Positions 2,276 through 7,238 of a stretch of DNA of 24,000 nucleotides are shown here, in pieces. A model generated the notes under the pieces. The model was not told the DNA's origin. It did not search any database and saw nothing but the letters and a program-made list of their open reading frames with translations. The position numbers and the translations under genes were made by a program. Source of the stretch: Variovorax sp. OK212 (GTDB taxonomy: Bacteria > Pseudomonadota > Gammaproteobacteria > Burkholderiales > Burkholderiaceae_C); contig NZ_FOLP01000001.1 in NCBI RefSeq assembly GCF_900112425.1, forward strand, positions 696,082 through 720,081, written 5' to 3'. Position 1 is the first letter of the stretch; every line of letters starts with the position of its first letter.

Positions 2276-3007
2276 TCATTCCTTCTTTCCGATACCCAGG
2301 TACGTATCGATGATCCGCTGGTCGTGCAGCAGGTCGCGCGCCTGGCCTTCGAGCGCGATCGCGCCCATCTCGAGCACGTAGGCGCGGTCGGCCACCTGCA
2401 GCGCGGCGCGCGCGTTCTGCTCCACCAGCAGCACCGAGACGCCATGGCTGCGCAGTTGCGAGACCACGCGCAGCACTTCGCGCACCACCAGCGGTGCGAG
2501 GCCGAGCGAGGGTTCGTCCAGCATCAGCAGGCGCGGGCGCGCCATGAGCGCGCGGCCGATGGCCAGCATCTGGCGCTCGCCGCCCGACAGCGTCGAGGCC
2601 ATCTGCGGGCGCCGCTCCTTCAGGCGCGGGAAGATGCCGAACACCTCGTCCATGCGCGCGCGCTGGTCGCGCTGGCCCTTGCGCCACTGGTAGAAGCCGC
2701 CGAGCAGCAGGTTGTCCTCGACCGACATCTCGCCGAACAGCTCGCGCCGCTCGGGGACCAGCGCCACGCCACGCGACACCATGGTCTCCACGCTGGGGCG
2801 CGCGATGCGTTCGCCGTCCAGCGCCAGCTTGCCGGTGGACGGCAGCAGGCCCATGGCCGCGCACAGCAGCGTGGTCTTGCCGGCGCCGTTGGGGCCGATG
2901 ACGGTGACGATCTCGCCCTCGTTCACATGCACGCGCACGCCGTGCACGGCCTCGACCGTGCGGTAGGCGACGCAGAAGTCTTCGAGTTGAAGGATGGGAT
3001 GGCTCAT
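2276..3007 (-). CDS. LivF-type ABC transporter ATP-binding protein
   Basis: 243 aa. Walker A GPNGAGKT, ABC signature LSGGERQ, Walker B LLMLDEPS. Its ATG (3007) overlaps the stop of the upstream gene as ATGA. Confidence 0.9.
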   Translation of the reverse strand: MSHPILQLEDFCVAYRTVEAVHGVRVHVNEGEIVTVIGPNGAGKTTLLCAAMGLLPSTGKLALDGERIARPSVETMVSRGVALVPERRELFGEMSVEDNLLLGGFYQWRKGQRDQRARMDEVFGIFPRLKERRPQMASTLSGGERQMLAIGRALMARPRLLMLDEPSLGLAPLVVREVLRVVSQLRSHGVSVLLVEQNARAALQVADRAYVLEMGAIALEGQARDLLHDQRIIDTYLGIGKKE

Positions 3008-4941
3008 CGTGCGTCTTCCAGCAGTTCGTCGTCGGCGCCGCCGAGGTAGGCCTCGAGCACGCGCGGGTTGGCCTGCACTTCGGCCGGGGTGCCGGTGGCG
3101 ATGACGGTGCCGAATTCGAGCACCGTGATGCGGTCGGCCAGGTTCATCACGAACTCCATGTCGTGCTCCACCACGAGGATGCCCAGGCCTTCGGCGCGCA
3201 GCTGGCTCAGCAGCACGGAGAGGGCGCGCTTTTCCAGGTGGCGCAGGCCGGCGGCGGGCTCGTCCAGCAGCAGCACCGACGGCTGTCCGGCCAATGCACG
3301 CGCGATTTCCACCACGCGCTGCTGGCCCAGCGAGAGCGAGGCGGCGGGCGTGTCGGCATGCGCGCCGAGGCCGCAGCGTTCGATCTGGCGGCGGGCCTCG
3401 GCCATCAGCGCGGCTTCTTCGGCGCGGTCGAGCCGCAGCGCGGCCGCGAGCCAGCCGCGCCTGGCGCGCAGGTGAGCGCCGAGCGCGACGTTCTCCACCA
3501 CGCTGCGCTGGCCCAGCAGCCGCACGTGCTGGAAGGTGCGGCCCAGGCCGCGCGCCGCGAAGGCGCGCGAAGGCTTGCCCGACATCGTCTCGCCCACCAG
3601 GCGAACCTCGCCCGAGCTGGGGTCGTCGACGCCCGAGATCATGTTGAAGAAGGTGCTCTTGCCTGCGCCGTTCGGCCCGATCAGCGCATGGATCTCGCCG
3701 GCCTTGAGCGTCATCGAGATGGCGTTGTTGGCCACCAGCCCGCCGAAGCGCTTGCTGACGTCGTCGGCCTGCAGCACCAGCGTGCCGGAGGCGGGCAGGG
3801 TGCGCTGGGCGAGTTGAGTGAGTTGAGCGAGTTGAGCAGGCGCACCAGTCGCGGCGGTTGCTTCAGGCACCGCCTTGGCCACCGGCCGCACCCAGCGGCT
3901 CAGCAGCCGCGCGAGCGTGGGCCACAGGCCGTCGGCGAAGCGCTGCAGCACGAACAGCATCAGCAGGCCGAACACCACCACCTCGAAGTTGCCGCTGGTG
4001 CCCAGCAGCGCGGGCAGCACGTCCTGCAGCTTTTCCTTCAGCAGCGTGATCAGCGTGGCGCCGAGCACCGCGCCCCACAGGTGGCCCGCGCCGCCGACCA
4101 CCGCCATGAACAGCATCTCGATGCCGATGTTCAGGTTGAAGGGCGTGGGGTTCACGAAGCGCTGCATGTGCGCGTAGAGCCAGCCCGACACGGCCGCCAG
4201 CAGCGCGGCCAGCACGAACAGCTTGATGCGGTGGCGGGCGGTGTCGACACCCATCGACTCGGCCATGAGCCGGCCGCCCTTGAGCGCGCGGATGGCGCGG
4301 CCTTCGCGCGAGTCGAGCAGGTTGTGCATGGCCCACAGCGCGAGCAGCAGCACCGCCCAGATCACCACGCCCAGCTTGCGCGGCGTGGCCAGCGAGAAGC
4401 CCGCCACCACCAGCGGCGGAACGCCGGTGATGCCGGTCTGCCCGCCCAGGAACTCCATGTTGCCCAGCAGGAAGTACAGGCTCAGGCCCCAGGCGATGGT
4501 GCACAGCGGCAGGTAGTGGCCCGACAGCTTGAGCGTGACCGCGCCGAGCGCCCAGGCCAGCAGGAAAGTGGCCACCAGCCCGAGCAGCAGCCCGGCCCAG
4601 GGCACCAGCGCCGAGCCGGCGAAGCCGCCGAGCCAGCCGGCCGCGGTGGGCGAGGTGCAGATCCACGCGGTGGCGTAGGCGCCCATGCCCACGAAGGCGG
4701 CCTGGCCGAACGAGGTCATGCCGCCCACGCCGGTGAGCAGCACGAGGCCGACCGCCACCAGCGCGTACAGGCCGATGTTGCTCAGCACCGAGACCGTGAA
4801 CTCGGGCAGCCAGCCCCAGGCCAGCGCGAGCGCGACGATGCAGGCCAGCGTGAGGGTGCGCGGCGTGACCAGCGGGCGGCCCTGCGCGGCGGCTCGGGTG
4901 GAAGCGGGAGAAGCAGCAGAAGTAGACGAAGACGGATTCAT
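3004..4941 (-). CDS. Fused LivM-type permease / LivG-type ATP-binding protein (single polypeptide)
   Basis: 645 aa from the ATG at 4941 (MNPSSSTS...) inside track ORF 3004..5775. This ATG overlaps the stop of the LivH-type gene as ATGA. The N-terminal half is polytopic and hydrophobic (LivM-like). A Gln/Leu/Ala linker ([13 protein letters not shown]) follows. The C-terminal half is an ATPase with [15 protein letters not shown] and [10 protein letters not shown]. The frame is continuous, with no stop or frameshift between the two halves. Confidence 0.88.
3811..3837. repeat. In-frame 9-bp tandem repeat x3 in the LivM-LivG linker
   Basis: GAGTTGAGT GAGTTGAGC GAGTTGAGC, encoding (QLA/QLT/QLA) on the minus strand. 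Confidence 0.9.
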
Positions 4942-6070: not shown

Positions 6071-6092
6071 CCTTTCGTTCGACCCCTGGAGA

Positions 6093-7238
6093 TCAGGGCT
6101 GGTATTTCCAGGCGCCGTTCTCGATCTTCACCATCACGCGGGCGCGCTGGTCCAGGCCCAGGTGGTCGGCCGCGGTCATGTTGAACACGCCGTGCGCGCC
6201 GGCCACTTCCTTGGTCTGCTCGAGCGCGTCGCGCAGCGCGGCACGGAACTCGGGCGTGCCCGGCTGGGCCTTCTTCAGCGCGGCCGGCACGGCCGAGCTC
6301 ATCAGCAGGCCGGCGTCCCAGGCGTGGCCGCCGAAGGTCGACACGGAACCCTTGCCGTAGGCGGCTTCGTACGCGGCCACATAGGCCAGCGCGGACTTCT
6401 TCACCGGGTTGCTGGCCGGCAGCTGGTCGGCCACGAGCACCGGGCCGGCGGGCAGGAAGGTGCCCTCGACGTCCTTGCCTCCCACGCGCAGGAAGTCGGC
6501 GTTGGCCACGCCGTGCGTCTGGTACATCTTGCCGTTGTAGCCGCGCTCCTTGAGCGTCTTCTGCGGCAGTGCGGCCGGCGTGCCGGAGCCTGCGACCAGC
6601 ACCGCGTCGGGCTTGGCGGACATGATCTTCAGCGCCTGGCCGGTCACCGAGGTGTCGGTGCGCGCATAGCGTTCGTTGGCCACGACCTTGATCTTCTTCA
6701 GCTCGGCGGCCTTGGCGAATTCCTGCGACCAGCCTTCGCCGTAGGCGTCGGAGAAGCCGATGAAGGCGACGGTCTTCACGCCGTTGGCGGCCATGTGCTC
6801 GGCGATGGCCAGCGACATCATGATGTCGTTCTGCGGCGTCTTGAAGACCCACTTCTTCTTGGCGTCCATCGGCTCGATGATGCGGGCCGAGGCGGCCACC
6901 GAGATCATCGGCGTCTGCGCTTCGCTGGCCACGTCGATCATGGCCAGCGAGGCCGGCGTGGTGGTCGAGCCCAGGATCACGTCGACCTTGTTCTCGGCGA
7001 TGAGCTTGCGCGTGTTGTTCACGGCGGCCGTGGTGTCGGACGCGTCGTCCAGCACGATGTAGTTGATCTTCTGCCCGCCGATCGTCTTGGGCATCAGGGC
7101 GATCGTGTTCTTCTCGGGAATGCCCAGCGAAGCGGCCGGGCCGGTGGCCGAGATGGTCACGCCGACGTTGACGTCGGCCCAGGCCGAGAGGGCCGTGGCG
7201 CACAGGGCAGTGATCAGCAGGGGCTTGAAGAATTTCAT
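6093..7238 (-). CDS. Periplasmic substrate-binding protein, LivK/Leu-Ile-Val-binding (type I PBP) family; ligand unknown, possibly an aromatic acid
   Basis: 381 aa with a Sec signal peptide (MKFFKPLLITALCATALSAWA/DV). The mature part has the alternating alpha/beta pattern of the LivK/amide-binding family. It is the first gene of the transporter block. Confidence 0.88.
   Translation of the reverse strand: MKFFKPLLITALCATALSAWADVNVGVTISATGPAASLGIPEKNTIALMPKTIGGQKINYIVLDDASDTTAAVNNTRKLIAENKVDVILGSTTTPASLAMIDVASEAQTPMISVAASARIIEPMDAKKKWVFKTPQNDIMMSLAIAEHMAANGVKTVAFIGFSDAYGEGWSQEFAKAAELKKIKVVANERYARTDTSVTGQALKIMSAKPDAVLVAGSGTPAALPQKTLKERGYNGKMYQTHGVANADFLRVGGKDVEGTFLPAGPVLVADQLPASNPVKKSALAYVAAYEAAYGKGSVSTFGGHAWDAGLLMSSAVPAALKKAQPGTPEFRAALRDALEQTKEVAGAHGVFNMTAADHLGLDQRARVMVKIENGAWKYQP

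Follow-up and report, generated by a model that had tools for sequence, protein, structure and literature searches.

A 24,000-nt stretch of the genome of Variovorax sp. OK212 (contig NZ_FOLP01000001.1, positions 696,082–720,081), referred to below as the window, carries a Liv-type ATP-binding cassette (ABC) importer inside its phenylacetate degradation (paa) operon. Our analysis indicates that phenylacetate, possibly with close arylacetate analogues, is the probable physiological substrate of this importer, and that the importer is likely to be expressed as part of the paa operon, where it would feed the phenylacetate-CoA ligase PaaK. An earlier note on this DNA had proposed the uptake of phenylacetate. 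This remains the best-supported reading because of the homology of the binding protein to aromatic-acid binders, its conserved carboxylate clamp, the linkage of the transporter to the paa genes, and the paa-promoter palindrome, which also precedes a binding-protein gene that is unlinked to them. The functional prediction is well-supported and is not surprising in principle.

A Complete Importer of the HAAT Family

The earlier note placed four Liv-type genes on the same strand, 47 bp after paaE and before paaZ, and the gene map confirmed this arrangement. The periplasmic binding protein starts with a Sec-type leader, which ends in AWA and is followed by DVNVG (the mature protein would span residues 22–381), and matches Peripla_BP_6 (PF13458, E 1.5e-47) and ANF_receptor (PF01094, E 8.5e-22). 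The top NCBIfam matches of the LivH-type permease are UrtB and LivH, both under the cut-off, and that of the LivF-type ATPase is LivF PRK11614 (E 1.3e-71), under the equivalog cut-off. Between these two genes lies a LivM-LivG fusion, in which a LivM-type BPD_transp_2 half is followed by ABC_tran (PF00005) and a BCA_ABC_TP_C tail (PF12399). The two halves are joined by a short Ala/Gln/Leu-rich linker at residues ~350–390, which includes a short repeat, and a Ser/Ala-rich extension of ~30 residues stands ahead of the first membrane segment. The start of the fusion reading frame overlaps the livH stop codon (ATGA), and the livF start overlaps the stop codon of the fusion in the same manner. The fusion is not an assembly artefact, because a single tblastn alignment spans both of its domains in 84 of 91 related loci, including the paralogous systems of the same genome.

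The system thus comprises one binding protein, two permease domains and two ATPase domains, and is therefore a complete importer. It has a type I binding protein, two BPD_transp_2 domains and LivG-like and LivF-like ATPases, and belongs to the HAAT family (TC 3.A.1.4 type). It is also the sole transporter encoded in the window. The domain search found no SSS-type permease or OprD-type porin domain in any window gene; with all genes assigned to domains, the observation that the window contains no paaL/paaM-type permease or porin is correct.

The Binding Protein Belongs to the Aromatic-Carboxylate Branch

The binding protein is the specificity determinant of the importer, and copies 96–97% identical to it are found in Variovorax species. 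When it was compared with all solved structures, the closest relatives were seven distinct sequences (E 2e-119 to 6e-101, ~45–48% identity), among them R. palustris RPB_4630 (3SG0/4DQD), the hydroxycinnamate binders RPD_1889 and CouP, and Variovorax IadK2. All other solved proteins, including the true Leu/Ile/Val binders (~1e-11 to 1e-17), gave E values of 1e-17 or weaker. The top 14 Foldseek matches were likewise all members of cluster B-III, with TM scores of 0.63–0.75; the query was an AlphaFold model with a mean predicted local distance difference test (pLDDT) of only 70, which served for the fold ranking alone and not for pocket geometry. The score against the NCBIfam model of the Leu/Ile/Val binding protein, PRK15404, was 47 bits (cut-off 477). 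As its full-length relation to the solved cluster B-III members is closer than that to the amino-acid binders, the sequence assigns the binding protein to the aromatic-carboxylate (cluster B-III) branch and not to the Leu/Ile/Val binders.

For the examination of the ligand pocket, the residues of the window protein were mapped from published contacts via alignments. The carboxylate ligands of CouP are Arg197, Ser222 and Thr102 (PMC3610893), and they correspond to R193, S218 and T94 of the window protein; CouP Phe306 and His309 correspond to F302 and H305. The aromatic residues of the IadK2 pocket, Phe168 and Phe308 (PMC10374108), correspond to F162 and F302. Together with Y166, T301 and a four-residue loop insertion (see the comparison with known systems), they make up a set of positions that hardly varies within the orthologue group and is different in the IadK-like paralogues of the same genome. 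Thus, when set against the characterised aromatic-acid binders, as the earlier note had suggested, the window protein keeps both the carboxylate clamp (R193/S218/T94) and the aromatic pocket (F302/F162).

The Transporter Genes Are Recurrently Linked to paa Genes

The gene arrangement was compared across 80 loci, one genome per species, which hold orthologues of at least 77% identity and come from the Comamonadaceae and the Roseateles/Piscinibacter group. The binding-protein gene stands directly behind paaE or paaR in 62 of the 80 loci: in 30 it comes immediately after paaE, which is the arrangement of the window, and in 32 immediately after paaR, which itself mostly follows paaE there. It heads its own transcription unit in 13 loci, and the remaining five meet a contig edge. 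The complete livH, livM-livG, livF set follows the binding-protein gene in 56/80 loci, and paaZ follows in 41/80. As this arrangement recurs in dozens of species, it is not a chance juxtaposition. In a maximum-likelihood tree, the window belongs to a supported clade with 45 rows, 35 of them paa-linked. Of 300 evenly sampled Burkholderiales genomes, 32 contained an orthologue of at least 60% identity; paaA was present in 21 of these and in 32 of the 268 genomes lacking such an orthologue. These counts are descriptive only, as relatives are not independent.

In 14 of the 80 loci, the binding-protein gene stands alone in the paa cluster. These loci come from relatives in Roseateles, Piscinibacter, Rhizobacter and Leptothrix (L125-L129, L131, L134, L137, L140, L143, L146-L149), whose genomes carry, at another place, a livH, livM-livG, livF operon that has no gene for a binding protein. 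It should also be mentioned that three loci (L106, L043, L046) carry tandem duplicates of the binding-protein gene before a single permease/ATPase set. In two further loci, L040 (~13.7-19 kb) and L100, a PaaK-like CoA ligase has as its neighbour a second Liv-type system that is only distantly related, with a binding protein of 37% identity; this looks like a separate importer-ligase module for aryl acids.

A paa-Promoter Palindrome Precedes the Binding-Protein Gene in Six Related Loci

The paaG promoter of 39 related loci carries the palindrome ACCGAYCGRTCGGT. Within the window, ACCGNNCGNNCGGT has a single exact match, ACCGACCGTTCGGT, which lies in the promoter region between the divergent paaG and paaY; its stricter form occurs nowhere else in the 8.8-Mb genome. 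This site lies ~9 kb upstream of the transporter in the same array and, from its position, is presumed to be a candidate PaaR operator for the whole minus-strand array. TetR-type PaaR repressors of other bacteria are released by phenylacetyl-CoA and have different consensus sequences (PMC6651687).

In 2.14 Mb of related loci, 48 exact ACCGNNCGNNCGGT sites were found. Besides the 39 upstream of paaG, six are located 72–95 bp upstream of the binding-protein gene, in loci where the transporter heads its own unit, and three lie elsewhere; the binding-protein gene is thus the only recurrent position of the palindrome apart from the paaG promoter. In an Ottowia locus (L118), the palindrome precedes the binding-protein gene with no paa gene within 10 kb. 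In a Leptothrix locus (L129), it lies between the lone binding-protein gene and a divergent paaY-like/TetR pair. The loose ACCGNNCGNNCGGT pattern was also tried as a genome-wide signal and rejected, since its 25 sites, compared with 37 sites of the reversed control pattern, are at chance level; the weight of the palindrome evidence lies in its placement and its stricter form alone.

The lone binding-protein genes raise the question of whether this protein mainly senses phenylacetate, for instance in chemotaxis or signalling, while the membrane parts serve as a shared general aromatic-acid translocator. The 14 related species with such genes in their paa clusters, the membrane/ATPase operons that lack a binding protein elsewhere in their genomes, and the six paralogous binding proteins of the B-III type in the genome of OK212 itself are in line with this idea. 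We nevertheless consider it improbable, as the window and 56 of the 80 relatives have all four genes next to one another, with stop and start codons that overlap. Moreover, among three lone-binding-protein genomes looked at, one (G109) carries a near-perfect palindrome of the paa type at the partner operon: ACCGACCGGTCGGA, with one mismatch, lies ~200 bp upstream of the operon without a binding protein (L154), which is easier to reconcile with a split importer than with a sensor.

Other Aromatic Acids as Possible Ligands

Homology gives the class of the ligand and not the ligand itself, because the nearest solved relative, RPB_4630, binds phenylpyruvate, going by its PDB titles, and IadK2, a paralogue of another type, does not bind phenylacetate (PMC10374108). 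The main rival explanation is therefore that the importer takes up another aromatic acid which feeds into, or accompanies, the paa pathway, such as phenylpyruvate, benzoylformate or mandelate, phenylpropionate or longer phenylalkanoates, or hydroxyphenylacetates. RPB_4630 was crystallised with 3-phenylpyruvate (4DQD) and shares with the window protein a four-residue loop insertion that CouP and IadK2 lack, and binding proteins of this cluster can be promiscuous, as exemplified by CouP, which also binds 4-hydroxyphenylpyruvate (PMC3610893). On the other hand, none of the operon's genes specifies an enzyme for turning such acids into phenylacetate or phenylacetyl-CoA, 14 species keep just the binding-protein gene inside their paa clusters, and the paa-promoter palindrome precedes the unlinked binding-protein gene. 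In addition, the pocket-neighbouring residues R119, E122, S218 and T301 of the window protein are I, A, A and I in RPB_4630. Taken together, another aromatic acid appears an unlikely substrate, although a much more serious candidate than a sensing function.

Besides the ligands of RPB_4630 and IadK2, several other observations weigh against phenylacetate uptake under paa control. Some genomes in which paaA was not found encode orthologues of 60–76% identity that keep the pocket signature, among them all seven Sterolibacteriaceae genomes that have an orthologue (e.g., Sulfuricystis); this also speaks for another acid. Six of the eight close loci without a paa gene in their flanks also lack the palindrome. 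At the origin-proximal loci described below, no palindrome was found except for one-mismatch sites in two Burkholderiaceae loci. No promoter or operator was found between paaE and the transporter in the window, so the case for co-regulation there is purely positional. Finally, the structure model, with its pLDDT of 70, is of moderate confidence only.

The more distant orthologues (60–76% identity), which also occur in Ralstonia-type and Bordetella-type genomes, stand in a recurrent origin-proximal housekeeping context, flanked by rnpA-yidC-(mnmE) at one end and by mnmG-parA-parB at the opposite end. Such loci were found in Sterolibacteriaceae (L034-L039, L043), Ramlibacter (L123) and Burkholderiaceae (L042, L045, L046, L051), and this site may be the ancestral location of the transporter operon. 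Organisms with such orthologues may put the acid to a different use; the other possibility is a ligand range wider than phenylacetate.

The Acylase Is a Rare Addition to the Operon

A gene for a penicillin-G-acylase-type amidase is located between paaK and paaA in the window. Among the 80 related loci, only that of Variovorax sp. IB41 (L080) has it, so the acylase, present in 2 of 81 loci, is a recent insertion into a conserved operon. It is a rare add-on and not the reason for the presence of the transporter, and it could be a periplasmic source of phenylacetate in this strain. The earlier note had combined acylase, importer and PaaK into a chain of deacylation, import and activation. Such a chain is plausible for this strain only.

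The alternative that the importer takes up the amine or amino acid freed by the acylase, also raised in that note, or branched-chain amino acids, as the database names suggest, found little in its favour. The public annotation of the transporter is indeed 'branched-chain amino acid ABC transporter', and the acylase gene is part of the same operon. However, the binding protein is far from the amino-acid binders, both in its score against the Leu/Ile/Val model and in the structure and sequence searches, and the carboxylate clamp in its pocket is built on Arg, as in the aromatic-acid binders. The transporter is also kept in paa operons without an acylase, and the rarity of the latter gene makes import of its amine or amino-acid product unlikely. 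We regard amino-acid uptake as the least probable of the explanations considered, and very improbable in itself.

Proposed Route of Phenylacetate Uptake

If phenylacetate is the substrate, it would first enter the periplasm, where in this strain part of it may be freed from phenylacetyl amides by the acylase. The binding protein would capture it by the Arg/Ser/Thr carboxylate clamp and the aromatic pocket and deliver it to the heterodimeric permease formed by LivH and the LivM half, while the LivG half and LivF would power the transport. In the cytoplasm, PaaK would trap the acid as phenylacetyl-CoA, which enters the PaaABCDE pathway. As phenylacetyl-CoA is a known type of inducer for TetR-family PaaR repressors, it would probably induce the operon. 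The transporter genes would probably be transcribed within a unit reaching from paaG through paaZ, starting at the single palindrome-bearing paaG promoter.

A wider reading joins these observations and is offered tentatively, as we think it less likely to be right than wrong by a good margin. The orthologue group might represent a so far unnamed system by which Burkholderiales in general take up phenylacetate with high affinity. In Variovorax it would be paired with the IadK2-based indole-3-acetate importer, so that two paralogous binding proteins of non-overlapping specificity would scavenge both major plant auxins. In a few strains the lipoprotein acylase would add a harvest from phenylacetyl amides (plant phenylacetyl-amino-acid conjugates, penicillin G) by periplasmic deacylation, import and CoA activation.

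Gene Map of the Window

Domain searches and codon-position GC were used to map all genes of the window, the G+C content of which is 68–72%. The paa and transporter genes form a single minus-strand array in the order paaG-paaI-paaK-amidase-paaA-paaB-paaC-paaD-paaE-four transporter genes-paaZ (Table 1). The remaining genes of the window encode an SDR protein, a second TetR, BatA/VWA, DUF58, MoxR, an HtrA-like protease and TatD.

Table 1. Features of the paa array and its surroundings, in window coordinates.
Feature	Position	Strand	Evidence or remark
paaZ, downstream neighbour of the transporter, last gene of the array	64-2124	-	TIGR02278, 985 bits (cut-off 563)
livF/paaZ spacer, 151 bp	2125-2275	-	sequence
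LivF-type ATPase, 243 aa	2276-3007	-	ABC_tran
LivM-LivG fusion, 645 aa	3004-4941	-	BPD_transp_2, ABC_tran and BCA_ABC_TP_C in one open reading frame
LivH-type permease, 342 aa	4938-5966	-	BPD_transp_2 (PF02653)
Binding-protein/livH spacer, 126 bp	5967-6092	-	two GC-rich hairpins, sense strand without U-tract
Periplasmic solute-binding protein, 381 aa	6093-7238	-	Sec leader, cluster B-III aromatic-acid type
paaE/binding-protein spacer, 47 bp	7239-7285	-	GGAGA ~10 nt before ATG
paaE, upstream neighbour of the transporter	7286-8371	-	TIGR02160, 457 bits (cut-off 421)
paaA, paaB, paaC, paaD	8385-11020	-	
Penicillin-G-acylase-type amidase, between paaK and paaA	11061-13520	-	Penicil_amidase, E 1e-131
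paaK, phenylacetate-CoA ligase	13559-14869	-	TIGR02155, 703 bits (cut-off 646)
paaI	14883-15341	-	
paaG	15345-16148	-	
Palindrome ACCGACCGTTCGGT	16201-16214		divergent paaG/paaY promoter region
paaY, divergent from paaG	16318-16947	+	TIGR02287, 321 bits (cut-off 320)
TetR-family regulator, paaR-like, downstream of paaY	16829-17704	+	TetR_N and TetR_C_24

The true start of the TetR-family regulator is probably near position 17000. The spacer between livF and paaZ consists almost entirely of GC-rich palindromic repeat modules and may separate the expression of paaZ from that of the transporter. The hairpins of the 126-bp spacer were considered as a special element and rejected, as their fold energy is no better than that of shuffled sequence (z -0.97). 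A promoter scan of positions 1900–8500 found no sigma-70-like promoter, which is weak negative evidence.

Comparison with Known Systems

The known phenylacetate uptake genes are paaL and paaM of Pseudomonas putida, and the role proposed here for the window system within the paa cluster is equal to theirs. PaaL and PaaM are an ion-coupled permease and a porin, whereas the window encodes an unrelated, binding-protein-dependent and ATP-driven importer. Of 102 genomes, P. putida was the only one in which these two genes were found (PMC2653477). Phenylacetate uptake outside Pseudomonas is poorly documented, and a conserved, probably PaaR-controlled ABC importer would fill this gap for many Burkholderiales. 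The literature searched, including GapMind and work on Aromatoleum, on paa-cluster evolution and on Variovorax MarR regulators, contained no description of an ABC-type phenylacetate importer, though one may still exist.

In comparison with LIV-I of E. coli (LivJ/LivK-LivHMGF), the window system shares the HAAT family and the permease and ATPase domain types. It differs in that LivM and LivG are fused, its binding protein is far from LivJ/LivK, and the scores of all five NCBIfam Liv equivalogs are far under their cut-offs. If true, the phenylacetate assignment would correct the widespread annotation as a branched-chain amino acid transporter.

A further parallel is CouPSTU of R. palustris (RPA1789, RPA1791-1793), a HAAT importer of hydroxycinnamates that is encoded in an aromatic-acid catabolic cluster and regulated via the CoA thioester of its substrate (PMC3610893). 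CouP belongs to the same subfamily as the window protein (~45% identity, E 7e-103). Its Gln305, which bonds the 4-OH group of the ring, is Thr301 in the window protein, and it lacks the four-residue loop insertion that the window protein has near the position of CouP Leu122. The contexts differ as well: CouPSTU stands among cou genes with a MarR-type regulator, and the window system among paa genes with a TetR-type regulator. The closest solved relative is RPB_4630 of R. palustris HaA2 (3SG0; 4DQD, the 3-phenylpyruvate complex), with ~48% identity and an E value of 2e-119; its TM score against the window model, which is of moderate confidence, is ~0.71–0.74. Apart from the four substitutions given above, both proteins have the loop insertion as well as F162, Y166, R193, F302, H305 and W307.

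Phenylacetate is a plant auxin, and the removal of auxins by root-microbiome bacteria has Variovorax as its model genus. The prediction of a phenylacetate importer can help in annotation and in studies of Variovorax that concern auxins. In this genus, IadK2 (PDB 7YLT) is the indole-3-acetate binder of the iad auxin-degradation operon (PMC10374108). Like the proposed window system, it provides the uptake arm of a catabolic locus for an auxin-type arylacetate, and it belongs to the same B-III subcluster as the window protein (~47% identity). Tyr166 and His305 of the window protein take the places of the IadK2 specificity residues Trp172 and Tyr311, and IadK2 lacks the loop insertion. An iad-type auxin locus (L151, G000:C29:1083246-1088576) with three tandem B-III binding proteins is also present in the OK212 genome, ~380 kb from the window. 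One of the three is the IadK2 orthologue (7YLT, E 2.4e-162) and carries the Trp/Tyr specificity residues that are absent from the paa-linked protein. Since IadK2, the characterised auxin binder of the genus, shows no binding of phenylacetate, a second importer dedicated to this acid would matter for the influence of Variovorax on plant hormone levels, and the window protein and IadK2 would offer a natural pair of binding proteins for studies of arylacetate specificity or for the construction of sensors.

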